A DNA stretch of 64,000 bases from Beijerinckiaceae bacterium (GTDB taxonomy: Bacteria; Pseudomonadota; Alphaproteobacteria; Rhizobiales; Beijerinckiaceae), in NCBI GenBank assembly GCA_025459195.1, contig JALORF010000001.1, positions 894 through 64,893 on the forward strand. Direction: 5' to 3'. The position numbers and the translations under genes are program-made. How positions within the stretch are numbered: position 1 is the first letter of the stretch; each line of letters opens with the position of its first letter. Shown piece by piece: positions 7,863 to 50,425 of the stretch. The notes under the pieces were generated by a model. The model did no database searches. It saw nothing but the letters and a program-made list of their open reading frames with translations, and had not been told where the DNA came from.

Positions 7863-10196
7863 ATGTCAAGCGCGGCGCAATCTCATGGCGCGGTAGCCCC
7901 AGTGGAAGCCAGCAGCCGCGATCCGGTTTGCGGCATGTCGGTCGATCCGCATACCACCAAGCACCATGCCGACCATGCCGGCCGAACCTTCCATTTCTGT
8001 TCCGCCGGGTGTCGCACGAAGTTTGTTGCCGACCCGGTGAAATATCTCTCGCCCGCCGACGCGGCGGTCCCGCAGGTCCCGGCTGGGAGCATCTACACCT
8101 GCCCGATGCACCCCGAAATCCGTCAGGTTGGCCCTGGTTCCTGCCCGATATGCGGCATGGCGCTGGAACCGGATGTCGCGACCGCCGATGATGGACCAAA
8201 CCCTGAGCTCATCGATTTCACCCGGCGTTTCTGGGTCGGTCTGGCGCTGACGTTGCCGCTGCTGGCCCTCGAAATGGGCGGGCATCTTTTTGGTATCGAC
8301 AAGCTGGTTCCGCGCCAGATGTCGAACTGGCTGCAACTGCTGCTGGCGACGCCGGTCGTGCTGTGGTCGGGCTGGCCGTTCTTTGATCGTGGCTGGCGAT
8401 CGATAGTCAGCCAGAACCTCAACATGTTCACTCTGATCGCCATTGGTACCGGCGTGGCGTGGAGCTACAGCGTCGTCGCCACGGTCTTTCCCGACAATTT
8501 TCCGGCCGCATTCCGGCAGGCCGACGGCGCGGTCGCGGTATATTTCGAGCCCGCTGCCATCATCGTCGTGCTGGTGCTGCTCGGCCAACTGCTCGAGCTG
8601 CGGGCGAGGGCCGCAACGGGCGGTGCTATTCGCGCCCTGCTGGACCTGGCGCCCAAGACAGCGCGGCTCGTTGGCGACGATGGTTCAGATCGTGAGGTGG
8701 CGCTCGACACCATCGTTGCCGGCGACCGCATGCGGGTGCGACCGGGCGAAGCGGTTCCGGTCGATGGCGTTGTGGAAGACGGCCGCACCGCAATCGATGA
8801 ATCGATGGTGACCGGTGAATCGATGCCGGTGACCAAAGCGGTCGGCGCGCGGGTTTCGGCGGGCACAATCAACCAGACCGGCGCTATCATCATCCGCGCG
8901 GAGAAGGTTGGCAGTGACACCATGCTGGCGCGCATCGTCCAGATGGTCGCCGAGGCGCAGCGCTCGCGCGCGCCGATCCAGCGCCTCGCCGACCGGGTTT
9001 CGGGGCTGTTCGTTCCTGCCGTCATCGTCGTCGCCGCCATGGCCTTTGCCGTCTGGGCACTGATCGGCCCGGAACCGCGTCTGGCCTTTGCGACGGTCGC
9101 CGCGGTTACGGTGCTGATCATTGCCTGCCCGTGTGCGCTGGGACTGGCGACGCCGATGTCGATCATGGTTGGCGTCGGGCGCGGCGCCCAGGCCGGGGTG
9201 CTGGTCAAGAATGCCGAAGCGCTGGAGCGCATGGAGAAGGTCGATACGATCGTCGTCGACAAGACCGGCACGCTCACCGAAGGCAAGCCCGCCGTAGCCG
9301 CCATTGAACCGGTGGGCGACATGCCGGCCGACGACCTGCTGCAACTGGTCGCGGCTGTCGAGCGATCGAGCCAGCATCCGCTGGGCGCAGCGATCGTCGC
9401 GGCGGCCGAAGCAAAGGGGTTGGCGATCGGCGAGGTGACGGATTTCGATGCGCCGACCGGCAAGGGCGTCATCGGCACGGTTGCTGGCAAGCAGGTGGCC
9501 ATCGGCAAGCCAGCGTGGCTGGCCGAGCTTGGTGCCGATGTCACCGGTCTTGCCGACGCCGCCGACCGGCATCGGCGGGACGGGGCGACAGCGGTGCTGG
9601 TCGTCATCGACGGCAAGGCGGCAGGGGTCATCGCAGTTGCCGATCCGGTGAAGGCCTCGACCGCCGAGGCGCTGGCAGCGCTACGCACTGCCGGCGTCAA
9701 GGTCATCATGCTGACGGGCGACAACCGCGTGACGGCGGAGGCAATCGCGCGCCGTCTCGGGATCACGGAAATCGAGGCCGATGTGCTGCCGGACCAGAAG
9801 GCCGCGGTCGTCGCGCGGTTGAAGGCGGCTGGCGCGGTGGTGGCGATGGCCGGTGATGGTGTCAACGATGCGCCGGCGCTTGCTGCCGCCGATGTTGGCA
9901 TCGCCATGGGCACCGGCACTGATGTAGCGATCGAAAGCGCGGGGGTGACGCTGCTGAAGGGCGATCTGAACGGGATCGTGCGCGCCCGGCGGCTGAGCCA
10001 GGCGACGATGCGCAACATCCGGCAGAATCTCGTGCTGGCATTTGTTTACAACCTTGCCGGCGTACCGATCGCTGCGGGGGTGCTGTACCCGTCGTTCGGC
10101 ATCCTGCTTTCGCCTGCAATTGCTGCAGCCGCGATGGTACTGTCGTCGGTGAGTGTCGTCGGCAATGCGCTGCGCCTGCGGCGGGTAGCGCTCTGA
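7863..10196 (+). CDS. copA: Copper-translocating P1B-type ATPase with YHS and heavy-metal-binding domains
   Basis: DPVCGM..FCSAGC (YHS), [31 protein letters not shown] and MxxSS. Confidence 0.95.
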
Positions 10197-14680: not shown

Positions 14681-15118
14681 TCAATGCCGGGCGAATATCG
14701 CAGGTTTGCCCGTGCCAAAGGCCACGACCGTGTAGTGATCGGCGGCCCGCCCCGGCACTTCCATGCCCGGCGAGCCGATTGGCATGCCCGGAACAGCGAG
14801 TCCGGTCACGCCGGCCGGGCGCTGCGCCAGCAGCCGCTTCATATCGGCTATCGGTACATGGCCCTCGAATGCCAGGCCGGCGATGAGCGCGGTGTGGCAC
14901 GATGCAAGTCCGGCGGGCATGCCGATGCGCTTGTGAATGGCGCCGCGATTGGCGTTGTCCACCACAGTCACAGCGCGGCCGAACTGTTTGGCCACCTGCG
15001 CCGCCCAGGCTTCGCAGCAGCCGCAGCCGGGATCACGGTGCATGACGATATCATTGGCAGCCATGGCCGGGGCTGCAACCAGGGCGAGAGCCAGGAGTAG
15101 TTTGTGCATCGCTGTCAT
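14681..15118 (-). CDS. DUF411 / CopG-like periplasmic metal-binding protein
   Basis: Signal peptide, then DPGCGCCEAW, LASCHTA, FEGHVP and GLAVPGMPIGSPGME. Confidence 0.9.
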   Translation of the reverse strand: MTAMHKLLLALALVAAPAMAANDIVMHRDPGCGCCEAWAAQVAKQFGRAVTVVDNANRGAIHKRIGMPAGLASCHTALIAGLAFEGHVPIADMKRLLAQRPAGVTGLAVPGMPIGSPGMEVPGRAADHYTVVAFGTGKPAIFARH

Positions 15119-15846
15119 CCTTTCACTGCAAAACGAACATTTCGCCGTCGCCGGATCGGCCAGCGCATCACCAGCAGCACCGTGCCGGCCAGACCCAGCA
15201 CCAGCCCGCCGATGGCAAAGGTCAACAACCACCACGTGTTGAAGTTATCGCGTTCCGTCCAATCCATGATGTGCAGGCCCCAGAAAAAGTCGAACAGGCG
15301 CCAGTTGGCGGTACGCACTGCGGCGATCTGCCCGGTATTGGCGGCCACGAAGACACTGGTGTGATCGGGATCGGGAAAGGCCACGCGCCACGCCGGCAAC
15401 GGGCCGCGATATTCGGGGCTGGCGGTCGTCACCCTCGACGCGGTCGGCGCGCCGCTGGCGGGGCCGATCCAGGCCTTGCGGACGATGGCCGCAGCCAGAC
15501 CGGCATCGACGGCAGGCAGCCGTGCACCGGTCACGGCATCAAACAGCGTGACGTCGCCGCCGCGGCTCACTTCAACGACGGCGCGGCCGTGCAGCATGCG
15601 CAAGGTGATGCGCTCGGCGCTCTTGCCATTCATGAAGCGCGCTGGATCGGACAGCGTGACACGGGCCGGCAGCAGCTCCACAGCCTTGCGATCGACCAGA
15701 TGATCGCCGTGGATTTCTTCGATTGGCCAGAAGCTCATCAGCGCGCCGCTGGCAAACCAGATCAGCAACTGCGCGCCGATGATCAGCGCCAACCATTTGT
15801 GCAGCCGGCTGGCGACAAGGTGAAAGCGCTGGCGGCGTGACGGCAA
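15115..15846 (-). CDS. PepSY-associated TM-helix membrane protein
   Basis: LHKWLALIIGAQLLIWFASG and DFFWGLHIMDW; TTG start; coupled to the DUF411 gene. Confidence 0.85.
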   Translation of the reverse strand: MPSRRQRFHLVASRLHKWLALIIGAQLLIWFASGALMSFWPIEEIHGDHLVDRKAVELLPARVTLSDPARFMNGKSAERITLRMLHGRAVVEVSRGGDVTLFDAVTGARLPAVDAGLAAAIVRKAWIGPASGAPTASRVTTASPEYRGPLPAWRVAFPDPDHTSVFVAANTGQIAAVRTANWRLFDFFWGLHIMDWTERDNFNTWWLLTFAIGGLVLGLAGTVLLVMRWPIRRRRNVRFAVKG

Positions 15847-15885: not shown

Positions 15886-17157
15886 CTAGAACCAGGCGCG
15901 AATGCCAGCAACGACATGAAGAAAGCTGGGGCTTTCGCCAGCTGCCCTGGCGAAGCGGGCGCTATCGCCGACCTTGCTGACCCATTCGACGCCAACATAC
16001 GGCGCGAATTCTCGGCGCACTTCATAGCGCAACCGCATCCCCAGCTCGATGTCGGTCACGCCTGCACCACTGCCAAGTTCGGGAATGCGCTGCGCCGAAA
16101 AATTGATCTCGCCGCGCGGCTGCAGGATCAAACGCTGGGTAACGCGTTGATCGTAGAAACCCTCGGCCCGCGCCGTCACTTCGCCTTTGTTCGACAGGAA
16201 GATCGAGCCAACCGTCCGGAACCAGTAGGGTGCCAGGCCTTCGATGCTGGCCACGGCAAAGGTGCGCTGCGGGTTAGGTCGAATATCTTGGCGCACACCG
16301 ACCTGCCAATTCCACCATGGATCAAAGGCCCGCGAATAGAGCGCCTGCACCTCTGCCTTTTCCGTGACGCCGCGGATGTCGCCTTCGCCTTCTGTCCTGA
16401 CGACGAGCCGGTTCACATCGCCACCGAACCAGCCCTCGCCTTCCCAGCGATAGCCATCCGCGCCTTTGCGGGCGACATATTCGGCGATGTTGAACAGGAT
16501 GAAGCTGCTCTGGAAATTGCCATGTTCGTCGCGCAGCTGCTGCCGCGACGGTGCCTGCACAGCGGCTCCCCAAATGGCATCGGCAGCGTGATCGGTTGGT
16601 GGCGATGGGGCCGGGGTCGTACCGATCTCCTCGGCAGGCACCGCAGCCATTCCCTGCATTGCGCCCATATTGTGCCCGGCGTGCGGATCAGCGGCGGGTG
16701 TTGCCGGGGCCGCAGGGGCCATCCCCGGCATCGCGCCCATATTGTGCCCGGCGTGCGGATCAACAGCTGGCGCTGCCGGGGCCGCAGGGACCATTCCCGG
16801 CATTGCGCCCATGTTGTGCCCGGCGTGCGGATCAGCAGTGGATGCTGCCGGGGCCGCAGGGGCCATCCCCGGCATCGCGCCCATGTTGTGCCCGGCGTGC
16901 GGATCAACAGCTGGCGCTGCCGGGGCCGCAGGGGCCATTCCCGGCATCGCGCCCATTTCATGACCGGCGTGCGGGTCGGCCGCCGGCTTGGCTTTGGGCG
17001 CGCCTGCCGGCTTTGGCAGTGGCTTGGGCTTCGCAGCGGCTGGCTTGGGCGCAGCGGGCTTTGCTTGAGGCATGGCCATGCCGGGCATCATGGACGGCTG
17101 CGCTGCGACTTGCGCTGCGAGGCTTGCGGCGAGGGCGACGATCAGAAAGGCCTTCAT
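15886..17157 (-). CDS. copB: Copper resistance outer-membrane protein B
   Basis: Met/His-rich N-terminal region followed by a CopB barrel (WEGEGWFGGDVNRL..EFAPYVGVEW..GIRAWF); 4-bp overlap with the multicopper oxidase. Confidence 0.92.
   Translation of the reverse strand: MKAFLIVALAASLAAQVAAQPSMMPGMAMPQAKPAAPKPAAAKPKPLPKPAGAPKAKPAADPHAGHEMGAMPGMAPAAPAAPAVDPHAGHNMGAMPGMAPAAPAASTADPHAGHNMGAMPGMVPAAPAAPAVDPHAGHNMGAMPGMAPAAPATPAADPHAGHNMGAMQGMAAVPAEEIGTTPAPSPPTDHAADAIWGAAVQAPSRQQLRDEHGNFQSSFILFNIAEYVARKGADGYRWEGEGWFGGDVNRLVVRTEGEGDIRGVTEKAEVQALYSRAFDPWWNWQVGVRQDIRPNPQRTFAVASIEGLAPYWFRTVGSIFLSNKGEVTARAEGFYDQRVTQRLILQPRGEINFSAQRIPELGSGAGVTDIELGMRLRYEVRREFAPYVGVEWVSKVGDSARFARAAGESPSFLHVVAGIRAWF
16650..16980 (-). 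repeat. 72-bp tandem repeat x5 inside copB (DPHAGHNMGAMPGMAPAAPAAPAV)
   Basis: The gcgcccat(a/g)ttgtgcccggcgtgcggatc core recurs at about 16661, 16733, 16805, 16877 and 16949. Confidence 0.95.
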
Positions 17158-18992
17158 GCCGCATCCTCGTCCTTGCGCACGGTCACGACACGGAACATCC
17201 CGGCATGCATGTGCAGCAACATGTGGCAATGGAAAGCCCAGTCACCCAGCGCATCGGCGGTCAGATCGAACGCCACCTTGGCGCCCGGCAGCACATTGAC
17301 GGTATGCTTGACCGGGCGATTGCCCTTTTCACCTGTCACCAGCTCGAAGAAGTGACCGTGGATATGGATCGGGTGCGGCATCATCGTGTCATTGATCAGG
17401 TTGACGCGCACGCGCTCGTTGTAGCGGAAGGCGATCGGATCGGCACCCTCGCTGAACTTCACGCCATCGAACGACCACATGTAACGTTCCATGTTGGCGG
17501 TGAGGTGAATATCAATTTCGCGCGAGGGGTTGCGCGGATCGGGATTGGGATCGAGCGAGCGCAACTGGCTGTAGGTCAGCACCCGGTGCGGTTCGTTCTC
17601 GAGGCCGGTGGGGCGTTCGCCGGTGCGGTCCATCGGCATCGGCGCCAGCGTTGCAACGCCGGGGCCCATCTTGACCTGCGGCGCAACCGAAGGATCGAGC
17701 ATCTTCATCGATCCCATATCGTGACTCATGCCGGCCATGGCGCCGCCGCTCATGTCCATCTTGCTGTGATCCATGCCGGCCATGGGAGCGCCGGCCGGCT
17801 CAGCAGCGGTACTCCCCGCAGGCATCGCCATTCCCGGCATTTTGCTGTGGTCCATGCCAGCCATGGCGCCGCCGCCGCTCATGTCCATCTCGCCCATGCC
17901 CATGTCTTTCATGGTCAGCAGCGGCCGCTTGCGCAGCGCCGGCACCGGGCCGATCATGCCCATGCGCGGCGCCAGCGTGGCCCGCACAAGGCCGGAACGG
18001 TCGATGCCCTCGGCGATAAAGCCATAGGCCTTGTCCTCGGTCGGGCGAACGACGATGTCATAGGTTTCGGCCACGCCGATCTGGAACTCGTCGGTTTCCA
18101 CCGGCTGGACATTGTTACCGTCGGTGCCGACGACAGTCATGGCCAAGCCGGGGATGCGCACGTTGAAATTGGTCATCGCAGCGGCATTGACGATGCGCAG
18201 CCGCACCCGCTCGCCCGGCTTGAACAGGCCGGTCCAGTTTTCATCGGGGCCGTGTCCGTTGACAAGATAGGTGTAGATCGCGCCGGTGGAATCCGAAATG
18301 TCGGTCGGGTCCATGCGCATCTGGCCCCACATCCGCCGTTCGGCCGCCGACTGGTCCTTGCCGGCGAGCAGACCACCCAGTGTCTGCTTCTGGAAATTGA
18401 AGTTGCCGCCGTTCTGCTTCAGCTTCTTGTAAACCGTGTGTGGATGCACGAAGCTCCAGTCGCTGAGCACGATGACATGCTCGCGGTCGAACCCGACGGG
18501 ATCGGCACCGGCCGGATCGATGACGATCGAGCCATAGTGGCCCATCGCTTCCTGAAGGCCCGAATGGCTGTGATACCAATAGGTGCCTGCCTGACGGATC
18601 GGGAACTCGTACACAAACGTCTGACCTGGCTTGATACCCGGAAAGCTGACGCCGGGCACACCATCATATTGAAACGGCAGCAGCAACCCGTGCCAGTGGA
18701 TCGAGGTGTCTTCCGCCAGCGTGTTGGTCACCGACAGCCGGACGTTCTGGCCTTCTTTCAACCGGATGAACGGGCCGGGAACGCTGCCATTGATGGCAAT
18801 GGCGTGGCCGGTGCGGCCGCCGACCGTGAAGGGGGCATGGCCGATACTAAGCCTGATATCCTCGCCCGACAGCACGTCGCTCGCGGCATTGAGGCCAGCG
18901 CTGCCACTGCGCGCCCAAGCCGGCACCGCCAGCGCGCCACTGACAAGTGATGCAGCGCGCAGAAAGCCGCGGCGAGACGTGAGAAGGGTCAT
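17154..18992 (-). CDS. copA: Copper-resistance multicopper oxidase (CopA/PcoA type), Tat-exported
   Basis: SRRGFLR Tat motif; HWHG, WYHSH, HPIHIHGH and HCHMLLH copper motifs; Met-rich insert. Confidence 0.96.
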   Translation of the reverse strand: MTLLTSRRGFLRAASLVSGALAVPAWARSGSAGLNAASDVLSGEDIRLSIGHAPFTVGGRTGHAIAINGSVPGPFIRLKEGQNVRLSVTNTLAEDTSIHWHGLLLPFQYDGVPGVSFPGIKPGQTFVYEFPIRQAGTYWYHSHSGLQEAMGHYGSIVIDPAGADPVGFDREHVIVLSDWSFVHPHTVYKKLKQNGGNFNFQKQTLGGLLAGKDQSAAERRMWGQMRMDPTDISDSTGAIYTYLVNGHGPDENWTGLFKPGERVRLRIVNAAAMTNFNVRIPGLAMTVVGTDGNNVQPVETDEFQIGVAETYDIVVRPTEDKAYGFIAEGIDRSGLVRATLAPRMGMIGPVPALRKRPLLTMKDMGMGEMDMSGGGAMAGMDHSKMPGMAMPAGSTAAEPAGAPMAGMDHSKMDMSGGAMAGMSHDMGSMKMLDPSVAPQVKMGPGVATLAPMPMDRTGERPTGLENEPHRVLTYSQLRSLDPNPDPRNPSREIDIHLTANMERYMWSFDGVKFSEGADPIAFRYNERVRVNLINDTMMPHPIHIHGHFFELVTGEKGNRPVKHTVNVLPGAKVAFDLTADALGDWAFHCHMLLHMHAGMFRVVTVRKDEDAA

Positions 18993-19037
18993 GGTTATTC
19001 CTGAAATTTCAAGATTGGGCAGACGTTACATAGGGTG

Positions 19038-19064
19038 ATACGCAGTCTGCCGAGCCGGCCCTCA
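19038..19064 (-). promoter_or_regulatory. ECF-sigma (CnrH-like) promoter for copA-copB
   Basis: Minus strand TGAGGG-N16-CGTAT; same architecture as the two sites at 20392-20456. Confidence 0.75.
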
Positions 19065-19640
19065 AGATTTGGGCTGCGACACTTCAGCCGTGCCGGCGAG
19101 CGCCTTGCGGGCGCGGTAAACACGCACTTCAACGGCCTTCTCGCTGATCCCCAGCACCGCTGCGGCCTCCGCCTGGGACAGGCCTTCGATGGCAGTCAGG
19201 ATAAGGGGCTCCTTCAGATTGGCCGGCAGTGCTGCAATGGCACGCGTTACCCGGGCGAGAGCGCGGGCATCATCGATGGCTACCTCAGGGGCTACGTCCG
19301 GCTCGGCAATCTCGCTGGCTGCATCCAGCGGCAGTGCAAAGCGCAGCACGCGCCTGACCAGCCGCCGCCGCCCCCAGTCGCGGCATTTGTTGAGTGCGAT
19401 GCGGTTGATCCAGTATCGAAAAGGCCGACCGCGGTCATAGCGCTCGATGGCCGCAAAGGCCGCGACGAAACATTCCTGCACCACATCCAGCGCTTCGTCG
19501 GCGTCGCCGATGTGGCTGCGCACCAGGCGGAACACCGGTTCACGGTGACGCCGCATCAGTTCGCTGAACGCCGCCTGGCGCCCGGCCAGCGCCAGCACAG
19601 CGAGTTCACTGTCAGCGCAGTCGGTGAGCGGCATTGTCAC
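19062..19640 (-). CDS. ECF RNA polymerase sigma factor (CnrH/NccH-like)
   Basis: Region 2 (DEALDVVQECF..YWINRIALNKCRD) and region 4 (GLSQAEAAAVLGISEKAVEVRVYRARK). Confidence 0.9.
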   Translation of the reverse strand: MTMPLTDCADSELAVLALAGRQAAFSELMRRHREPVFRLVRSHIGDADEALDVVQECFVAAFAAIERYDRGRPFRYWINRIALNKCRDWGRRRLVRRVLRFALPLDAASEIAEPDVAPEVAIDDARALARVTRAIAALPANLKEPLILTAIEGLSQAEAAAVLGISEKAVEVRVYRARKALAGTAEVSQPKS

Positions 19641-19647
19641 CGCGGCA

Positions 19648-20088
19648 TCATTCGCTCGGGGCTGTCAGCGCCTTGACTGCCGCTGCATCGAACCGGCGCG
19701 CCTGCTCCGGCCGCAGCACGCTGCGCACCCGGAACACATGCTGCAACGTCTCCTTCTGGAGTTCTCCCATCGCCTGATGTGATCGGTCTACTGCCGCCTG
19801 CACGCCGGGACCGTAGCCGTGCTCGGCGGTAATGGCCCGCGCCAGGCGAGCATTGTCGGCGCGCAATTCTTGCTCAAGCGCCTGCTTGCGCGCGGCAAAC
19901 TGCTGTTCCAGTGCTCCAATCTGCACACGCTGCGCGGCATCGAGTTCAAGTCTCTCATGCAGGATTGCATGTAGCTCAGTCTCGGGCGGTGCCAGCCGGG
20001 TGACCAGCGCACGCCCCGCAAACACACCGCCCACCGCCGCGATAAATGCCACCGCAGCAACGATGGCCAGTCGGCCGACATTGCTCAT
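19648..20088 (-). CDS. Periplasmic heavy-metal sensor (CnrX/NccX-like)
   Basis: One N-terminal TM helix, ELHAILH, then EH..DRSHQAMGELQKETLQHV helical domain; lies between the anti-sigma and sigma genes. Confidence 0.85.
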   Translation of the reverse strand: MSNVGRLAIVAAVAFIAAVGGVFAGRALVTRLAPPETELHAILHERLELDAAQRVQIGALEQQFAARKQALEQELRADNARLARAITAEHGYGPGVQAAVDRSHQAMGELQKETLQHVFRVRSVLRPEQARRFDAAAVKALTAPSE

Positions 20089-20363
20089 CCGACGCTGGCC
20101 AACAGGGTTGAGGGCGCCAGCTCCGAACCAGCAAACAACGGTGAACCCGGTGCAGCGACCACCGACCCACCCGGCAGCACTGTGGTGCCCATGCCGACAC
20201 CGAGCGCCAGCAGAGCTGCCAGACTGAGTGCGGTTCGGCTGCTGAGTGCGAGCGCGCTGCGCTCGGCATCGATGCCCGCCATCACAACAGTTTCAAGTGT
20301 CGCCAGCCGGGCCGGCACCGGCAGCGACCGCAAGCGCAAAAATGCTCCGTCGAGGTCATCCAT
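20085..20363 (-). CDS. Single-pass anti-sigma factor (CnrY/NccY-like)
   Basis: 92 aa with a cytoplasmic N-terminus, one TM helix and a C-terminal ELAPSTLL; Y-X-H gene order. Confidence 0.7.
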   Translation of the reverse strand: MDDLDGAFLRLRSLPVPARLATLETVVMAGIDAERSALALSSRTALSLAALLALGVGMGTTVLPGGSVVAAPGSPLFAGSELAPSTLLASVG

Positions 20364-20391
20364 TTTCTTCACTCCCAACCAACTTCTCGCC

Positions 20392-20418
20392 ATACGCGCG
20401 CCGGCCGTGCGGCCCTCA
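20392..20418 (-). promoter_or_regulatory. ECF-sigma promoter for the anti-sigma/sensor/sigma operon
   Basis: Minus strand TGAGGG-ccgcacggccggcgcg-CGTAT (16-bp spacer). Confidence 0.75.
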
Positions 20419-20429
20419 CCAGGAAAATT

Positions 20430-20456
20430 TGAGGGGGAGGCTTGCGGCATGCGTAA
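20430..20456 (+). promoter_or_regulatory. ECF-sigma promoter for copCD
   Basis: TGAGGG-ggaggcttgcggcatg-CGTAA (16-bp spacer), about 28 bp before the copC start. Confidence 0.75.
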
Positions 20457-20484
20457 GTGCGATTGAATAACCTGGAGACGTTTG

Positions 20485-20871
20485 ATGAAGACCATATACA
20501 ATCTGCTTGCAACCGTCCTGCTTCTGGCGCTCGGCGCCTCTGGCCCTGCGATGGCCCATGCCAAGCTTGTTTCTTCCACGCCCGCCGCGAACGGAACTGT
20601 CGACAAGCCGGGCAAGGTCGTTCTGGTTTTCAGCGAAAAGCTGATGGCAAAGTTCGCTGGCGCCGAACTCGTGATGACCAGCATGCCGGGCATGGCGGAC
20701 CATCAGCCGATGAAGATCACCGGTTTCACCACGGCGATGAGCGCCGATGGCAAGACGATGACCCTTTTGATGAAGCGCGCGCTGGCCAGCGGGACCTATG
20801 AAGTGAAGTGGTTCGCCGGCGGCGCCGATGCTCACCGGATGGAAGGCAGCTTCCCCTTCACTGTCAAATAA
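20485..20871 (+). CDS. copC: Periplasmic copper-binding protein CopC
   Basis: Signal peptide ending AMA, mature N-terminal HAKLVSSTP, Met motif MTSMPGM, and DAHRMEG. Confidence 0.93.
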   Translation: MKTIYNLLATVLLLALGASGPAMAHAKLVSSTPAANGTVDKPGKVVLVFSEKLMAKFAGAELVMTSMPGMADHQPMKITGFTTAMSADGKTMTLLMKRALASGTYEVKWFAGGADAHRMEGSFPFTVK

Positions 20872-21801
20872 ATGCCATTGGAATATCTGACCATCACTGT
20901 CAGGTTTGCATCATATGCAACCCTGACAGTCTTGTTCGGCTGGCCCCTCTTTGCGGTTTACGCGCTTCCCGCGGGCCTCCCCGCAGGGATTCCATCACGC
21001 CGCGTGCTTGCGCTGCTGGCGCTTGCTGCGGCGGTCTTCTCAGTGGCAGGCATTGTCGCCATGGCAGCGACAATGGCCGGCTCTGCGTTCAGCGCGGTCG
21101 ATAGCGCAACCATCGATGCGATGATCTTCGAAACGCCGATGGGGTCTGCGTGGCAAGTGCGAATGGCAGCTTTGGCGCTGTTGTTGGCGACCCTCCTGTT
21201 CGGCGATTTGCAACACCGCCCGTCTCGTCTTTTGGTCAGCGCCTTCGCCGCGACGGCATTGGCGTCACTGGCCTGGACTGGTCATGGTGCCGCCGGTGAG
21301 GGTAATGCCGGCTGGCTGCAGCTTGGGGCCGATGTCACACATCTGTTTGCCGCAGGCGCGTGGGTCGGGGCTCTGGCAGCTCTGCTGCAGCTGCTGGGGC
21401 GGCGTGCGATCGATGCCACGCCCGCTGTGATGGTCGTCGCGCATCAGGCGCTGGATCGCTTTGCCATTGCCGGAACGATCATTGTTGCCCTTCTTGCCGG
21501 TACCGGGCTTGTAAGCGTCTGGATGCTGGTCGGACCCGATCATGTCTTCGATCTGCTTGACAGCGAGTATGGACGGTTCCTGGTTGCCAAGTTGCTGCTG
21601 TTCGCAGCCATGCTTGGCCTCGCCGCCAGCAATCGCTTTCGCCTGACCCCCGCTCTGGGGCGTCAGATTGGTAGCGGTGTCGAGCCTGCAGCGGCTTTTG
21701 CAGCGCTCCGCCGAAGCATCTTTGCCGAGGCAGCGCTGGCCGCAGGGATCATGGCAGCGGTTGCGTGGTTGGGAACGCTCGCACCTCCAATGGTCATGTA
21801 G
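20872..21801 (+). CDS. copD: Inner-membrane copper protein CopD
   Basis: Multi-TM; LAWTGHGAAGEG, HLFAAGAWVGAL, YGRFLVAKLLL and NRFRLTP. Confidence 0.92.
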   Translation: MPLEYLTITVRFASYATLTVLFGWPLFAVYALPAGLPAGIPSRRVLALLALAAAVFSVAGIVAMAATMAGSAFSAVDSATIDAMIFETPMGSAWQVRMAALALLLATLLFGDLQHRPSRLLVSAFAATALASLAWTGHGAAGEGNAGWLQLGADVTHLFAAGAWVGALAALLQLLGRRAIDATPAVMVVAHQALDRFAIAGTIIVALLAGTGLVSVWMLVGPDHVFDLLDSEYGRFLVAKLLLFAAMLGLAASNRFRLTPALGRQIGSGVEPAAAFAALRRSIFAEAALAAGIMAAVAWLGTLAPPMVM

Positions 21802-26509: not shown

Positions 26510-26941
26510 TTATCGCCGGTCACTGTCGGCGGGGTGGCGATGCAGGCCGGACAGGTGTGCCAGAATCGGACATTCGCTGACCGCAGCATCGGGAGGACAA
26601 TCGTCGGCAAGACGGGAAAGAGCCTCGGCAATGGCGTGAAGATCGCGGATTTGCGTGTCGAGAGCGGCTATACGCGCCCGCGTCACCGTTAGAACAGCCG
26701 CAGCGCGCGCATTGTCGTCCGCTCGCAGCGCAAGGAGCTGCCGGATATCATCAAGCGGAAAACCAAGAGATTTGGCCCGTCGGATGAAACGCAGCCGTTC
26801 GATATCTGCCGTCCCGTAACTCCGATAGCCGGCCCGGGTCCTTGACGGCGGAGCCAGCAGTCCGAGACGTTCGTAGTAACGTACCGTATCGGTCCGCACT
26901 TCGGCAGCCTTTGCCAGTTTGCCAATTCCAATCACTACCAT
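26510..26941 (-). CDS. MerR-family heavy-metal regulator (CueR-like two-Cys loop)
   Basis: IGKLAKAAEVRTDTVRYYERLGLL; CPPDAAVSEC loop; no Cys at the start of the dimer helix. Confidence 0.9.
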   Translation of the reverse strand: MVVIGIGKLAKAAEVRTDTVRYYERLGLLAPPSRTRAGYRSYGTADIERLRFIRRAKSLGFPLDDIRQLLALRADDNARAAAVLTVTRARIAALDTQIRDLHAIAEALSRLADDCPPDAAVSECPILAHLSGLHRHPADSDRR

Positions 26942-26961
26942 CGAATCACCTCCGGCACGAG

Positions 26962-26992
26962 GTTTGCACCTTTGACCACGATCCAAGGTCAA
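26962..26992 (-). promoter_or_regulatory. MerR-type operator/promoter upstream of the regulator-csp operon
   Basis: Minus strand TTGACC followed by the imperfect dyad ACCTTGGA-N6-TCAAAGGT; also TTGACC-N9-GGTCAA. The -10 element is weak. Confidence 0.55.
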
Positions 26993-44235: not shown

Positions 44236-44586
44236 ATGCTGCAATTCCTGATCAAGGCGGCGCTGTCAGGCGTGATCGTGGCCATCGTTGCCACAGTCGC
44301 CCGCCGTTACCCCGGCTTCGGCGCGCTCGTGGCCTCGCTGCCGTTGGTCTCGCTGCTCGGCATGATCTGGCTGTGGCAGGACACGCATGACCCGGCCATC
44401 ATGGCCGTCCACGCCCGCGCCACCTTCTGGTTCGTCCTGCCATCACTCCCGATGTTCCTGCTCATTCCGGCGCTGCTGGATCGCGGCTGGTCATTTTGGC
44501 TGGCGCTGCTGACAGGCTGCCTGCTCACCATCCTGCTCTATCTGGGCATGACCTGGGCCGCAGCGCGCTTCGGGCTGCGGCTGTGA
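44236..44586 (+). CDS. DUF3147-like membrane protein
   Basis: IKAALSGVIVA..GALVASLPLVS..TFWFVLPSLPMF; 9 bp after czcA-2. Confidence 0.8.
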   Translation: MLQFLIKAALSGVIVAIVATVARRYPGFGALVASLPLVSLLGMIWLWQDTHDPAIMAVHARATFWFVLPSLPMFLLIPALLDRGWSFWLALLTGCLLTILLYLGMTWAAARFGLRL

Positions 44587-45600
44587 TCTGGCTCGAACGG
44601 CGCAACCGGCCGTTGCGGCGCCGGGCAATTGCAGTTCCAGCTTTGCACCGTCCCGCCATATGAGCCTGCCACCGGCACGTTCCATGATCGTGCCGGCAAT
44701 CGCCAGCCCCAGCCCGGATCCGTTGGACCGTTCGCCCTTGGCAAAACGTTCCTGCATGCGGTCCCGTTCCAGCTCGGCTACCCCCGGGCCTTCATCGGCA
44801 ACACTTATGGTCAGGCCATGATTGCTGGCGGCAAGGGTGATGGTGACCACACCAAGCCCATGGTGCAAGGCATTGCTCACAAGGTTGCGCAGGGCTTCGT
44901 CAAGGTCGGGCGCCATGACATGGGCCGCGACTTCCGCCTCGACCACAATGGACCTGCGCAACCGGTCGGCGAGGGGCAGAAATTCTGCCACGACCGCGCG
45001 GCACAGACGGGCGGCGTCGATCAAGGGGACATTGGTCAAGGCCGGGCGGGCAGCATCGAGCCGGGCCAATGCCAGCAACTGGCTGATCGCCCGCTGCATC
45101 CTGTCGAGATCGGCGGAAAGGCCGGCAAGGTCCATCGCGCCGCCTTCTCGCGTCTGGTCAAGGCGCAGCCTGGCAGTGGCCAGCGGCGTGCGCAGGGCGT
45201 GGGCGGCATCAGCGGCCAGTCGGCGCTCGTTCAGATAGGCTGCTGCAAGCCGGTCGAGCGCCTGATTTGTCGCCAGCACAAACGGCTGGACCTCCTGCGG
45301 CAGCCCGCCCGGATCAAGCCGTACATCCGGCTCATCCGGCCCAATGTGCTGCAACTGCTGAACCGCCTCCGACAGCGGGCGCAGGCTCCAGCCTGCCACC
45401 AAGACGCCCGCCCATGGCGCGATTACGGCAAAGGGCAGCAGCACCAGCAGCAGTTCGGCATATTCGACATGGGCGGGATCGAGTGTGTCACCGGCTTCGA
45501 TTTCCTTGAGTTCGATGGCGACAAAACCCAGCGTGACGATAGCCGCCACCAGGATAATGGCCCCGATCGACAGGCCGATACGGCGACGAAGCGAGCTCAT
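44491..45600 (-). CDS. Sensor histidine kinase
   Basis: Two TM helices, HAMP, H-box AAHALRTPLA, NLVSNA, DEGPG, GSGLGL. Confidence 0.92.
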   Translation of the reverse strand: MSSLRRRIGLSIGAIILVAAIVTLGFVAIELKEIEAGDTLDPAHVEYAELLLVLLPFAVIAPWAGVLVAGWSLRPLSEAVQQLQHIGPDEPDVRLDPGGLPQEVQPFVLATNQALDRLAAAYLNERRLAADAAHALRTPLATARLRLDQTREGGAMDLAGLSADLDRMQRAISQLLALARLDAARPALTNVPLIDAARLCRAVVAEFLPLADRLRRSIVVEAEVAAHVMAPDLDEALRNLVSNALHHGLGVVTITLAASNHGLTISVADEGPGVAELERDRMQERFAKGERSNGSGLGLAIAGTIMERAGGRLIWRDGAKLELQLPGAATAGCAVRARSQPQPEARCGPGHAQIEQDGEQAACQQRQPK

Positions 45601-46268
45601 GACGGCGGCGCTGGCAGCACCAGTCGCCAGCCGATGCCGCGGCGATTTTCGATCAGATAGCCGCCGGGTGCCAGCCGCCGACGCAGGCGGGAAACGATGG
45701 CTTCCAAGGCATTGGGGCTGAACGCTTCATCCAGCGTGTAGAGCCGATCCTGCACCACATCGCGGATCACGACTGCGGGCATCACCTCCAGCAGCAGCCG
45801 CAGCAGCGCAAATTCGCGGCGGCCAAGATCGAGCGGCTCCGGCCCGAGCCAGGCTTGCTGGGCACCGGTGTCCAGCCGAAGTGTGCCGTGGGTCAGAACG
45901 GGCGGTTGCCGCTGGCCGGGGCGCCGCAGCAGGGCGCGCAACCGTGCGGAAACCTCGTCGAGATCATAGGGTTTGACGAGGTAGTCATCGGCGCCGGCGT
46001 CCAGCCCGGCGATGCGATCGTCCAGTTCGCCATAGGCTGTCGCCACCAGCGCCGGCACGCCATGCCGCGCCAGCATCGGCAGCAGGGTCAGGCCTTCACC
46101 ATCGGGCAGACGGCGATCGACAATGGCAACATCAAATCGCGCCACCCCCAGACAATCATGGGCTGCCGCCAGCGTGGCAACAGCATCGACAGCGAAGCCC
46201 CGCCGCCGCAGGCCATTTGCCGCCAGCACGCGCAGGTCCGTCTCGTCCTCGACCAGCAGGATATGCAT
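45597..46268 (-). CDS. OmpR-family response regulator
   Basis: ILLVEDE, IVDRRLPDGEG, GADDYLVKP, winged helix NRRGIGW. Confidence 0.93.
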   Translation of the reverse strand: MHILLVEDETDLRVLAANGLRRRGFAVDAVATLAAAHDCLGVARFDVAIVDRRLPDGEGLTLLPMLARHGVPALVATAYGELDDRIAGLDAGADDYLVKPYDLDEVSARLRALLRRPGQRQPPVLTHGTLRLDTGAQQAWLGPEPLDLGRREFALLRLLLEVMPAVVIRDVVQDRLYTLDEAFSPNALEAIVSRLRRRLAPGGYLIENRRGIGWRLVLPAPPS

Positions 46269-46308
46269 CAGGGCCCTGATAACAGGCGGCACCGGCGGCG
46301 CCCAGAGC

Positions 46309-46324
46309 GTCAGGGTCGCGTCAG
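46309..46324. promoter_or_regulatory. Putative OmpR-family direct-repeat site
   Basis: GTCAG-N6-GTCAG (11-bp period) between the divergent regulator and RND-3. Confidence 0.45.
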
Positions 46325-46346
46325 CCTTCCCTGCTAGTGGAGACGC

Positions 46347-47339
46347 ATGGGATTTCAGACCTCGTTCTCGCAATTCATGCTGCTCGGCACATTCGGTTTG
46401 TCGGCGTGCAGCCCGGCGCCGGCCGCCAAGCCGCAGTCGCCTGCCAAGGTCGAGGCAATCGGGCACGAAACCGAACTGATGCAGCTGACATTGACGCCGG
46501 ACGCGGTGCAGCGCCTCGGCTTGGCAACGCAGGCCGTGCGCATGGCAGCCGGCGCAACCCTGTCGCGGACGGTGCCGGGCGAGATTGTGGCAGCCCCGCG
46601 CGCTGGCGGCTTGCCGGTGGCTGCGGGAAGCGATCTGGCGGCACTGGCCGGGCTGCAGGCCCGCGCCGATGCCGATGTGTCGCGCAGCATGGCCGATCTG
46701 AAACTGGCGCAGGCCAATCTGAACCGCGCCGCCAGCCTCGTGGAAGCCGAAGCCGGCAGCATCCGCGCCCGCGATGAAGCCACTCAGCAGGTTGCTGCAG
46801 CCAGAGCGGCGATGGCCGCAGCGACCCGTCAGCGACAGGCACTGGGCCAGGCCGTGGCCGGCTTGGGCGATGGCGGCACCTTATGGGTGCGCGCACAGGT
46901 GCCGGGCGCCGATCTGGGGCGGATCAACCGTGCTGCCGCCGTGCAGATCAGGCCGGTTGGCAGCAATATCAGCATCATGGCAAGGCCCGTGCGCGGGCCG
47001 GCGACGGCCACACCGGGCGCTGCCAGCGTCGATCTCTATTTTGCGCCGGCCGGCCGGGCCGGCTTGCGTCTGGGGGAGCGCGTGCTGGTCGATCTGGCCG
47101 AGGCGGGCAGCGGCAGGGCCGTAGCGCTGGATGTGCCGGCCGCCGCGATCCTCACCGATATCAACGGCGGCGAGTGGGTCTATGTCGAAACCGCGCCGCG
47201 CCGCTATGAACGGCGGCGGGTGGAAGTAGCCCGCATCACGGCGGGCCGGGCCATGCTGGCCAGAGGTCTGACAGGCCGTGAACGGGTGGTGACCGCCGGC
47301 GCTGCCGAACTGTTCGGCACCGAATTCGGCACCAAGTGA
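46347..47339 (+). CDS. RND periplasmic adaptor (system 3), lipoprotein
   Basis: Lipobox LSAC; C-terminal VPAAAI..VVTAGAAELFG. Confidence 0.88.
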   Translation: MGFQTSFSQFMLLGTFGLSACSPAPAAKPQSPAKVEAIGHETELMQLTLTPDAVQRLGLATQAVRMAAGATLSRTVPGEIVAAPRAGGLPVAAGSDLAALAGLQARADADVSRSMADLKLAQANLNRAASLVEAEAGSIRARDEATQQVAAARAAMAAATRQRQALGQAVAGLGDGGTLWVRAQVPGADLGRINRAAAVQIRPVGSNISIMARPVRGPATATPGAASVDLYFAPAGRAGLRLGERVLVDLAEAGSGRAVALDVPAAAILTDINGGEWVYVETAPRRYERRRVEVARITAGRAMLARGLTGRERVVTAGAAELFGTEFGTK

Positions 47340-50300
47340 TGCTGGCGGCGCTGATCGGATCGTCGCTGCGCCAGCGGGCACTGGTGTTGGCGCTGGCGCT
47401 GGTGCTCACCGTGCTCGGCGTGCGCGCCGCGCTGAATGCCCAGTTCGACGTGTTTCCTGAATTCGCCCCGCCCATTGTGGAGGTGCAGACCGAAGCGCCG
47501 GGGCTGGCCACCGAGGATGTCGAGGCGCTGGTGACGGTGCCCATCGAGACAGCGGTGAACGGCGTGCCGGGCCTGGCCACGCTGCGATCGAAATCCGTGC
47601 TCGGCCTGTCGTCGGTGGTGCTGGTGCTGGACCGCGCTGCCGATCCGATCCGCACCCGGCAGATGGTGCAGGAACGATTGGCGACCGTCACACCAAGATT
47701 GCCGGTGGCGGTGCGGCCGCCGGTGATGCTGGCGCCGTTGTCGGCCACCAGCCGGGCGATGAAGATCGGCCTGTGGTCCGACCGTCTTGACCAGATGACG
47801 ATGACCGAGATGGCACGCTGGACGATCCGCCCGCGCCTGATGGCGGTGCCGGGCGTGGCCAATGTCGCCATGTGGGGCGCGCGTGACCGGCAGTTGCAGG
47901 TGCTGGTCGATCCGGCGCGGCTGGCGGCAGCCGGGGTAACGGTAGCCGATGTGCAGCGGGCGGCGGGCGATGCCGTGGTGATTGCCGGCGGCGGTTTTGT
48001 GGACAGTGCCAACCAGCGGCTGGCGGTGCGGCAGGTGGTTGGTGTGACATCGGCCAGCGATCTGGCCGGCGCCGTGATCCGCAGTGTCGCCAGCGCGCCC
48101 GTGCGCATTGGCGACGTGGCCCAGGTCACCGAAGGCTTTGCCCAGCCGATCGGCAACGCGATCATCAACGGCCGCCCCGGCCTGCTGCTGATCGTGGAAA
48201 AACAGCTGGGGGCCAACACGCTGGAGGTGACGCGCGGCGTGGACAAGGCGCTGGCGGAACTGCGCCCTGGCCTGAAAGGCCTGAACGTCGATGGCAGCAT
48301 CTTCCGGCCCGCCACCTTCATCGAACGCGCGCTGGCCAATCTCGCTGAGGCGATGTGGATCGGCATCACACTGGTGGCAGCGGTGCTGATCCTGTTCACG
48401 CGCAACTGGCGCACCGCGCTGATCAGCATGACCGCAATCCCCTTGTCGCTGGTCGGCGCAGTGCTGGTGCTGACCGCCTTTGGGGTTGGCATGAACACCA
48501 TGGTGTTTGCCGGGCTGGTGATCGCATTGGGCGAGATCGTCGATGATGCCATCATCGACGTCGAAAACATCGGCCGGCGACTTCGGCTGGAAGCGGCGCG
48601 TGAACAGCCGCGCCCGGCGCTGGCCGTGGTGCTGGCCGCCAGCCTGGAGGTGCGCAGCGCCGTGGTGTTCGCCAGCGCCATCGTCATGCTGGTGTTTTTG
48701 CCGGTGTTTTTCCTGGGCGGCGTGTCGGGCAGTTTCTTCCGCCCGCTGGCCACGGCCTATATCGCCGCCATCGGCGCATCGCTGCTGGTGGCGCTCACCG
48801 TCACGCCGGCGATGTGCCTGCTGCTGCTGCCCGGTGCCGCCGAACGGGCGGAGCCGCGATGGGTGGTGGGTTTGCGGCGGCGCTATGGCCGTCTGCTGGC
48901 GGGCCTCGCGCCGCGCAGCGGCATCGCCATCGCCGTGGTGGCCGGCGGCATATTGCTGTCCGTCGCCGGCATCGGGCTGCTGCGTCAGCAGTTCCTGCCG
49001 GATTTCCGCGAAACCGATTTCCTGATGCACTTCGTCGAAAAGCCCGGCACAGGCATCGACGCGATGGACCGGATCACCATCCGCGCCTCCAGGGAACTCA
49101 CCGCGATCCCCGGTGTGCGCAATTTCGGCTCGCACATCGGCCGGGCCGAACAGGGCGATGAGGTCTATGGCCCCAACTTTACCGAACTGTGGATCAGTCT
49201 GGATGAAAGCGCCGATTACGACGCCACGGTGAAGCGCGTCGAAACCGCCATCGCCGGTTATCCCGGCCTGCAGCGCGATGTGCTCACCTATCTGCGAGAG
49301 CGCATCAAGGAAGTGCTCACCGGCGCCGGCGCCACCGTCGTGGTTCGGCTCTACGGGCCCGATCTGGCGCAGCTGCGCAGCCTGGCCGAACATGTGCGCG
49401 CCGGGCTGGACGGCACCGACGGCATCAAGGATCTGAAGGTGGAGCAGCAGAGCCTGATTCCGCAAATCCAGGTCATGCCGCGCCCTGATGCGCTGGCGCT
49501 GGCCGGCGTGACGGCCGGCGATGTGCGCCGGACGGCGGCCACGCTGATTGGCGGCACGCGGGTGGGCGAAATCTATCGCGACCAGAAAAGCTTTGAAGTG
49601 GCGGTTTGGGCCGTGCCGGCTGTGCGCAGCGATCTGGGTGCGCTCAGGCGGCTGATCGTGCCGGGGCCGGCGCCGGCCCCCGGCCAGGCAGGATCGGTGC
49701 TGCGTCTGGGCGATCTGGCGCGGGTGGCCGTGGTGCCGGCCGCCAACGAGATCAAGCGCGAAGCCGGGTCGCGCCGCATCGACGTAACGATGAATATCAC
49801 CGACGGTGCCGATCTGGGTAGCGTCGCGCAGGCAGTGGAAGCCAGGGTGCAGGCGATGGCCATGCCCGCCGGATATTATCCGCAGTTCCTGGGTGAATGG
49901 CAGGCCCTGCAGGAATCGCAGCGGCAGCTGGGCCTGCTCTCGCTGGCTTGCCTCGTCGGCATATTGTTCCTTGTGTGGCTGGAATTCCGGTCGGGCCGCA
50001 TCGTTGGCCTGGTCGCGCTCAGCCTGCCGTTTGCGCTGGTCGGCGGGGTCGTCGCCGCGGCGCTGGGCGGCGGGGTGCTGTCGATGGGGGCGCTGGTCGG
50101 CTTTGTCACCGTGCTCGGCATCTCGGCGCGCAACGGCATCATGCTCTTGAGCCATTTCCGCCATCTGGAGTACGATGAAGGCGAGGCGTTCGGCTTCCCA
50201 CTGGTGCAGCGCGGCGCTGCCGAGCGGCTGGTGCCGATCCTGATGACGGCGGGCACGGCGGCGCTGGCCCTGCTGCCGCTGGTGGTGCGCGGCAATGTGC

Positions 50301-50425
50301 CTGGGCATGAGATCGAATATCCGATGGCGCTGGTCATCCTGGGCGGCTTGTTCAGTTCCACCATGCTCAACCTGCTGTGGATGCCCGCACTCTACCTGCG
50401 GTTCGGCAAGGAGCAGCGGCCATGA
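47336..50425 (+). CDS. RND permease (system 3), CusA/CzcA-related
   Basis: FDVFPEFAPPIVEVQTEAPG, GEIVDDAIIDVEN, RLVPILMTA. Confidence 0.92.
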   Translation: MMLAALIGSSLRQRALVLALALVLTVLGVRAALNAQFDVFPEFAPPIVEVQTEAPGLATEDVEALVTVPIETAVNGVPGLATLRSKSVLGLSSVVLVLDRAADPIRTRQMVQERLATVTPRLPVAVRPPVMLAPLSATSRAMKIGLWSDRLDQMTMTEMARWTIRPRLMAVPGVANVAMWGARDRQLQVLVDPARLAAAGVTVADVQRAAGDAVVIAGGGFVDSANQRLAVRQVVGVTSASDLAGAVIRSVASAPVRIGDVAQVTEGFAQPIGNAIINGRPGLLLIVEKQLGANTLEVTRGVDKALAELRPGLKGLNVDGSIFRPATFIERALANLAEAMWIGITLVAAVLILFTRNWRTALISMTAIPLSLVGAVLVLTAFGVGMNTMVFAGLVIALGEIVDDAIIDVENIGRRLRLEAAREQPRPALAVVLAASLEVRSAVVFASAIVMLVFLPVFFLGGVSGSFFRPLATAYIAAIGASLLVALTVTPAMCLLLLPGAAERAEPRWVVGLRRRYGRLLAGLAPRSGIAIAVVAGGILLSVAGIGLLRQQFLPDFRETDFLMHFVEKPGTGIDAMDRITIRASRELTAIPGVRNFGSHIGRAEQGDEVYGPNFTELWISLDESADYDATVKRVETAIAGYPGLQRDVLTYLRERIKEVLTGAGATVVVRLYGPDLAQLRSLAEHVRAGLDGTDGIKDLKVEQQSLIPQIQVMPRPDALALAGVTAGDVRRTAATLIGGTRVGEIYRDQKSFEVAVWAVPAVRSDLGALRRLIVPGPAPAPGQAGSVLRLGDLARVAVVPAANEIKREAGSRRIDVTMNITDGADLGSVAQAVEARVQAMAMPAGYYPQFLGEWQALQESQRQLGLLSLACLVGILFLVWLEFRSGRIVGLVALSLPFALVGGVVAAALGGGVLSMGALVGFVTVLGISARNGIMLLSHFRHLEYDEGEAFGFPLVQRGAAERLVPILMTAGTAALALLPLVVRGNVPGHEIEYPMALVILGGLFSSTMLNLLWMPALYLRFGKEQRP

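Follow-up and report, generated by a model that had tools for sequence, protein, structure and literature searches.

A CnrYXH-type transmembrane switch, built around a sigma factor that belongs to extracytoplasmic function (ECF) group ECF291, probably controls a copper-detoxification regulon in the DNA described here, in place of the nickel/cobalt efflux pump that is the output of the known systems of this type. The locus lies in a 64,000-nt stretch (hereafter the window, meaning the whole stretch at its full length; positions 894 to 64,893 of contig JALORF010000001.1, GenBank assembly GCA_025459195.1, labelled Beijerinckiaceae bacterium), where a small membrane protein (Y), a membrane-anchored periplasmic sensor (X) and the sigma factor (H) are encoded between a copAB–PepSY–DUF411 unit and a divergent copCD unit. 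A first-pass annotation, made from the letters of this DNA, had proposed a CnrYXH-like cascade with anti-sigma factor, periplasmic sensor and ECF sigma factor in that order. The layout is borne out by the gene calls, by the PF13801 assignment of X and by the sigma domains of H, with Y taken as a putative anti-sigma factor. The proposed kinship holds for H and X, which their sequences identify as homologues of CnrH and of CnrX/NccX respectively; Y matches CnrY in size, topology and position and not in detectable sequence.

By its sequence H is a relative of CnrH. Its best match in the PDB is CnrH (4cxf, E 4.2e-32), the next match reaching only 1e-20, and BLASTP against the CnrH of plasmid pMOL28 aligns 186 aa at 42% identity (E 6e-37), with sigma-2 and the helix-turn-helix of sigma-4 particularly well kept. 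The protein has 190 aa and ends directly after region 4.2; it contains three scattered cysteines and no CxC motif, and an alternative GTG start is present at 19640.

The candidate link between this sigma factor and the copper genes is a promoter motif, TGAGGG-N16-CGTAW, of which the window has exactly three matches, at the places that the first-pass annotation had read, upstream of Y, copA and copC (pY, pA and pC in Table 1). Dinucleotide-preserving shuffles give a mean expectation of 0.02, and none of 100 shuffles reached three; the shorter core GAGGG-N16-CGTA finds the same three window matches only, against 0.22 expected. Each site faces its own unit, with 29 nt (Y), 29 nt (copC) and 46 nt (copA) from CGTA to the start codon, and Shine–Dalgarno-like sequences lie ahead of all three start codons, the copC ribosome-binding site being GGAG, 7 nt ahead of the ATG at 20485. 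The -35 boxes of the divergent pY and pC are 11 bp apart, the TGA of pA doubles as the stop codon of H, and no terminator was found between H and copA. The site before Y supports, as far as a motif can, the positive autoregulation that had been suggested for the Y-X-H operon.

The first-pass annotation had also proposed scanning the replicon for further GAGGG-N16-CGTA sites, and this was done on the 3.2-Mb bin that contains the contig, a poor proxy for the host: the three window sites are its sole motif matches, and the reversed control gave none. A weight matrix trained on related loci and then run over the whole bin ranked the same sites first to third, at 24.0 bits (pC), 21.4 bits (pA) and 16.0 bits, and the matches that follow (15.1, 14.1 and 13.6 bits) have mismatches in the core.

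The motif is, judged by its boxes, of the CnrH/ECF291 promoter type. On pMOL28, cnrYp reads AAGGG-N17-CGTATAA and cnrCp reads GAGGG-N17-CGTATAG (L096, 453-478 and 1827-1852), i.e. the same two boxes as at the window sites with a spacer of 17 nt in place of 16 nt by our own counting. The published cnrY and cnrC start sites lie 23–24 nt upstream of the genes (PMC9045368), which on pMOL28, as we read it, is 9–10 nt past CGTA. Carried over to the window, this spacing predicts start sites at about 20464-20465 for pC, 20383-20384 for pY and 19029-19030 for pA. The distance from CGTA to the start codon is 32 nt at cnrY, against a mode of 29 nt across the Y loci compared below. The ECF Hub consensus for ECF291, as quoted (PMC13492112 Table 4), gives ATACGC as -35 and CCCTCA as -10; this corresponds to the letter to TGAGGG...GCGTAT in reverse complement, so that the ECF291 family motif is the window motif, listed in the non-functional orientation. 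Promoter assignments that use the orientation printed in that table may be off.

Placement of the motif is conserved well beyond the window. The 90% clusters contain 657 relatives of the sensor, of which those with a taxon name are sphingomonads. A scan of GTDB with one genome per species (185,579 species genomes) yielded 535 stretches that encode a relative, and the module is also carried by 81 plasmids, of which 40 are typed as conjugative. Cultured, non-pathogenic carriers include Sphingobium sp. SYK-6, which has the module on plasmid NC_015974, Novosphingobium sp. PP1Y and Sandarakinorhabdus glacialis. The best 80 of the 535 stretches, mostly from Sphingomonadales and some of them cut by contig ends, were compared as loci: H lies downstream of X in all 80, copA follows H in 70, copC is divergent in 69 and a recognisable Y is present in 68. 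This YXH–cop layout is common in sphingomonads. GAGGG-N16-CGTA stands before Y in 79 of the 80 loci, between H and copA in 71 and before copC in 62, and in most loci the end of the sigma gene and the -35 box of pA overlap. The conserved parts are tGAGGG and tGCGTAt alone, and spacers and flanks drift (50–65 distinct sequences per class); two kept boxes around a drifting spacer are the signature of a two-box promoter.

Almost all further genes preceded by the motif in these relatives are copper-related. They encode DUF411 proteins (14 loci), His/Met-rich DUF305-like proteins (8), a second CopC (4), a small protein rich in Met and His, a four-helix protein rich in Cys and a DUF2231-like protein, and relatives carry a fourth and sometimes a fifth site (e.g. 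L015:12719-12743, L004:6259-6283 and L073:7187-7211). The window is without the fourth site that its close relatives have 3' of copD. Counted over whole genomes, the strict 26-nt motif occurs 3–10 times in each of five sphingomonad carriers, largely clustered at YXH loci, and one complete sphingomonad chromosome (G301) has no strict matches besides the three at the locus. Hephaestia caeni (G303, the genome of L055) has three separate clusters of strict sites on its contigs C2 and C3, which suggests several paralogous YXH–cop loci in one genome.

More distant modules tell a similar story at only 40–49% sigma identity to the window. Those of Aurantiacibacter, Sphingorhabdus, Asticcacaulis and Caulobacter lie among copper genes and have motif sites, with copAB, copper-binding proteins, CopC, DUF411 and DUF2231 as neighbours; the Asticcacaulis and Caulobacter modules also adjoin genes for resistance-nodulation-division (RND) efflux pumps whose metal specificity is unassigned. 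The YXH modules of Ralstonia and Cupriavidus precede RND pumps instead.

Turning to the sensor, the best solved relatives of X are NccX and CnrX (E 3.5e-19 to 4e-18). Its AlphaFold model (predicted local distance difference test, pLDDT, 77) consists of a transmembrane helix at residues 3–31 followed by four helices, and the top 15 Foldseek matches are all CnrX or NccX, the 14 CnrX matches having TM-scores of 0.78–0.86 and root-mean-square deviations of 2.1–3.4 Å. H40, H44, E61 and H117 align with the CnrX ligands His42, His46, Glu63 and His119, and in every sensor compared, 68 of 68 relatives among them, all four of these first-shell ligands are kept.

Two other positions separate the copper-linked sensors from those of the nickel/cobalt type. 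All copper-linked sensors examined, which comprise 68 of 68 sphingomonad sequences together with those of Aurantiacibacter, Sphingorhabdus, Caulobacter and Asticcacaulis, have His at position 106 and Met at position 109 in CnrX numbering (H104 and M107 in the window), and in most of them position 92 is His as well. Glu106, Ala109 and Pro92 are the residues of CnrX and a Ralstonia sensor, the two nickel/cobalt-type sensors examined. In the model of X, H104 and M107 fall in helix 3, some 10–13 residues ahead of His117. His-x-x-Met is a common motif of periplasmic copper proteins. Across the wider family, represented by 105 near-full-length sequences (50% clusters), the majority have His/Met at 106/109 and the CnrX-like Glu/Ala state is rare, being found in CnrX itself and one other (2 of 107 alignment rows); the nickel/cobalt sensor CnrX looks, in this alignment, like an outlier of its own family.

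From the content of the regulon and this clade-specific HxxM signature we infer that the signal of X is copper. The same wiring could instead respond to nickel, cobalt or zinc, or to metal or envelope stress in the periplasm more generally, the cop genes being switched on within a wider response, and this we regard as unlikely. Such a reading draws on the H42/H46/E63/H119 ligand set, which is identical to that of the nickel/cobalt sensor CnrX, and on the breadth of PF13801, which also covers Spy/CpxP/ZraP-like stress proteins, themselves weak fold matches of X. It has to contend with the copper specificity of nearly every motif-preceded gene in the window and its relatives, and with a His106/Met109 pair that all copper-linked sensors possess and that both CnrX and the RND-linked Ralstonia sensor do not; the window sensor is, moreover, without the methionine needed for the nickel/cobalt response of CnrX.

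Y has no Pfam or NCBIfam match, and its proposed role comes from its place and shape. Its stop codon overlaps the start of X (ATGA), and its sequence divides into a cytoplasmic N-terminus of about 40 aa, one membrane span and a periplasmic tail of about 30 aa. The tail carries a near-invariant LAPSTLL motif, in which L82, P84, L87 and L88 are invariant; the Y proteins of the compared loci comprise 61 distinct sequences. An AlphaFold2 model has a helix at residues 2–12, a second at 18–62 that runs into the membrane span, and in the tail a short helix at 85–89 over LAPSTLL. CnrY has been described as having a 45-aa cytoplasmic domain of two helices and a single span, with its C-terminus docked in the dimer of CnrX (PMC6851896), and the modelled architecture of Y fits this description; the two proteins are also of similar length (92 vs 95 aa) and both are encoded directly ahead of X. 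A pattern shared by the C-terminal tails of Y and CnrY, SPFG...LL.G, was seen by eye and given no weight. Y is accordingly named here as a putative anti-sigma factor.

Put together, the CnrYXH-type copper switch would work as follows. Y would hold H at the membrane, its periplasmic tail in contact with a dimeric sensor X. Periplasmic copper would bind X at the His3-Glu site, at the His104-x-x-Met107 pair or at both, and copper-bound X would change its contact with Y such that H is freed. RNA polymerase carrying H would then start at the three GAGGG-N16-CGTA promoters. From pY this would give more Y, X and H, a positive feedback, with read-through into copA; from pA, the copA–copB–PepSY–DUF411 unit; and from pC, copCD.

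The genes that would be placed under this control have the content of a copper regulon (Table 1). CopA has a Tat signal and a Met/His-rich insert (MDHSKM), and the start of copB overlaps the stop of copA. The N-terminal part of CopB (window 16500-17090, minus strand) holds five near-identical DPHAGH(N/E)MGAMPGM repeats; like the CopA insert, these are low-complexity regions typical of copper binding. The gene for the PepSY_TM protein has the same place in many relatives, and the DUF411 gene ends the unit. Around the locus, the window has the character of a metal island (7863-10196, plus strand; 26510-26992, minus strand; 44491-50425), with a P-type ATPase that has YHS and HMBD domains, MerR/CueR-like regulators, two TonB-dependent receptors and a two-component pair adjoining an RND pump at 44.5–46.5 kb.

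Table 1. Genes and candidate promoters of the YXH–cop locus, with positions in the window
Feature	Position	Strand	Evidence and remarks
DUF411 (CopG-like) periplasmic protein, CxCC motif	14681..15109	-	PF04214; start refined
PepSY_TM membrane protein	15115..15846	-	PF03929; start codon uncertain
copB, outer-membrane copper resistance protein	15886..17157	-	PF05275, E 1.3e-80; start refined
copA, periplasmic multicopper oxidase	17154..18992	-	TIGR01480, 818 bits; three Cu-oxidase domains
pA, candidate copAB–PepSY–DUF411 promoter, TGAGGG-N16-CGTAT	19038..19064	-	motif; matrix 21.4 bits
H, ECF sigma factor, CnrH group (ECF20/ECF291)	19062..19634	-	Sigma70_r2 and r4_2 domains
X, membrane-anchored periplasmic sensor, CnrX fold	19648..20088	-	PF13801
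Y, single-pass membrane protein, 92 aa, putative anti-sigma factor	20085..20363	-	topology, position
pY, candidate Y-X-H operon promoter, TGAGGG-N16-CGTAT	20392..20418	-	motif; matrix
pC, candidate copCD promoter, TGAGGG-N16-CGTAA	20430..20456	+	motif; matrix 24.0 bits
copC, periplasmic copper-binding protein	20485..20871	+	NF033814, 109.5 bits
copD, inner-membrane copper protein	20872..21801	+	NF033808, 271 bits

The first-pass annotation had cast the YXH system as a replacement for CopRS, and the search for kinases fits this view. No histidine kinase or response regulator is encoded at the locus, and no kinase of the CopS/CusS family (TIGR01386) scores above the NCBIfam cut-off in the bin or in any of the five sphingomonad genomes that carry the module. 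Other regulators are near at hand, since the contig has three CueR-like MerR genes (of which one, at 26510-26992, lies in the window) besides the two-component pair next to the RND pump, and the ECF module might only boost or fine-tune a copper response whose main control lies with a MerR/CueR-type or unrecognised two-component regulator. This is quite improbable in our view, given that no sigma-70-like promoter was found in the upstream regions of Y, copC and copA, that the two ECF boxes are the only upstream elements conserved across the 80 loci, and that the carrier genomes are without a CopS-family kinase above the cut-off. Least credible of all is that H does not use the three sites, these being a conserved repeat, the operator of another protein or promoters of another ECF sigma factor: ECF291-like start sites are reported as still regulated in a CnrH-free strain (PMC13492112), but the motif is always found together with the YXH genes, gathers at YXH loci genome-wide, has ECF geometry (a pair of boxes with a constant 16-nt spacer, correctly spaced from the start codons and correctly oriented to them), matches experimentally mapped CnrH promoters and is accompanied by a sigma factor whose sigma-4 helix-turn-helix is conserved with CnrH.

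Several observations weigh against a CnrYXH-type switch for copper. For Y, a profile of 28 orthologues did not recover CnrY from the PDB, and hhalign of Y with CnrY (translated from pMOL28) aligned only 15 residues at the N-terminus, with a probability of 0.8%. For X, the metal site is the one that in CnrX binds nickel, cobalt, zinc and copper, and the ligand cannot be read from it. Recruitment of Met123 by nickel or cobalt triggers CnrX (PMC6851896), and the corresponding residue of the window sensor is Val121; among the 68 relatives it is Met in 58 and Leu in 10. Because of the valine in the window and the leucines in these ten relatives, signalling in the clade of X, to judge from these residues, cannot depend strictly on a methionine at position 123, and the trigger mechanism of X may for the same reason differ from that of CnrX. 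For the link between cargo and signature, the sigma tree places the two RND-linked betaproteobacterial sequences in one long-branched clade and all copper-linked sequences on the other side, i.e. the cargo changes on a single branch, and the tree consequently offers no independent replicates of the association between cargo and HxxM and no direction of change.

The origin of the contig is a further point on this side. The bulk proteins of the bin cluster with proteins of a Bosea sp. metagenome-assembled genome (MAG), and the sensor is present in none of 300 genomes sampled from the bin's order; this figure was dropped as a prevalence for that order and indicates instead that the bin is no sphingomonad. 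The window sigma factor, CopA and outer-membrane protein, by contrast with the Bosea-like bulk, are at least 90% identical to those on a 640-kb contig of Sphingomonadales bacterium 28-64-96, and the window's contig (C108) is a compositional outlier (GC 63.5% vs 65.7%; tetranucleotide PC1 z = 3.4). On these four grounds the contig was probably mis-binned or recently transferred, a sphingomonad-like piece inside a Bosea-like bin, and counts over the whole bin therefore say little about the true host. Contigs C216, C137 and C109 are grouped with C108 in this remark. Comparable cases are found elsewhere: Sphingobium faniae and a MAG labelled Xanthobacteraceae (L029 and L030) have the same layout and the same four motif-site sequences, and a close relative of the window locus is found in a MAG labelled Pseudomonadales (L011). 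The loci under such odd labels are further instances of transfer or mis-binning of the island.

A wider reading is plausible, although we hold it more tentatively than that of the window itself. The CnrX fold may serve mainly for periplasmic copper sensors, marked by HxxM, that run cop regulons together with Y and an ECF291 sigma factor across Alphaproteobacteria. They would make up a third, transmembrane class of copper-linked ECF systems that replaces CopRS, and CnrX would be a derived outlier that has lost HxxM and relies on Met123.

Considering how the window system relates to those already described, CnrYXH of Cupriavidus metallidurans CH34 (on pMOL28) and NccYXH of strain 31A are the nearest. 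They share with it the Y-X-H order, promoters before Y and directly after H with boxes (G/A)AGGG and CGTAT, a sigma factor 42% identical in the case of CnrH, a sensor about 40% identical in the case of CnrX with the same four-helix fold and ligands, and a small single-pass membrane protein (about 92–95 aa) encoded upstream. They differ in cargo, which in the window is copAB–PepSY–DUF411 with divergent copCD and not the cnrCBA or nccCBA nickel/cobalt RND pump. Compared with CnrYXH in particular, the window has a third, divergent promoter and the shorter spacer (16 vs 17 nt, as counted here), a Y without detectable similarity to CnrY, a sensor with His/Met in place of Glu/Ala at 106/109 and Val in place of Met123, and an effector that is presumably copper rather than nickel or cobalt. 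The CopRS, PcoRS and CusRS two-component systems resemble the window system in their presumed response to periplasmic copper and in controlling genes for a multicopper oxidase, CopB, CopC and CopD; unlike them, the window locus encodes neither kinase nor response regulator, and its proposed means of control is the release of a sigma factor from an anti-sigma factor and not phosphorylation.

ECF sigma factors that switch on copper-handling genes are known in CorE of Myxococcus xanthus (ECF44) and in CarQ/CarR. CorE works without an anti-sigma factor and detects copper in the cytoplasm by means of a CxC motif and a C-terminal extension rich in Cys (PMC6851896). The window sigma factor, in contrast, has no Cys-rich extension to its 190 aa and is encoded together with Y and a separate periplasmic sensor X. 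In Acinetobacter baumannii, SigAb–AabA–AabB comprises a copper-stimulated ECF sigma factor, a short anti-sigma factor predicted to wrap it in the manner of CnrY and a second small protein (PMC12153292). The copper link and the short anti-sigma factor recall the window system, but the sigma gene comes first and there is no CnrX-type sensor. The direct SigAb regulon is without cop genes, the control of metal genes being indirect (PMC12153292). A 2019 review gives only CnrH (nickel/cobalt), CarQ and CorE (copper) as ECF sigma factors activated by excess nickel, cobalt or copper, and the ECF classification links ECF291 to a metal efflux pump. Our literature search, which did not extend to the supplements of the ECF classification with the neighbours of ECF291 subgroups, turned up no account of cop genes under the control of a CnrYXH-type system. 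The regulatory machinery and the promoter type are known, the output differs, the effector is probably another one, and the sensor has a diagnostic signature that is new.

These findings bear on how copper is sensed outside the cytoplasm. In Gram-negative bacteria the sensing of copper in the periplasm is usually credited to two-component systems of the CopRS/CusRS type, and CorE and CarQ work differently from the switch proposed here. Given the number of species genomes and plasmids that carry it, the YXH–cop module may act as the principal copper switch in sphingomonads and in some Caulobacterales. It also offers a natural experiment in metal selectivity, in which the CnrX fold and its first-shell ligands are combined with another output and probably another metal, and in which positions 106, 109 and 123 are the candidates for the difference. 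With its compact regulon, a probably orthogonal sigma factor and short, defined promoters, the module may further serve as a convenient copper-responsive expression module or biosensor.

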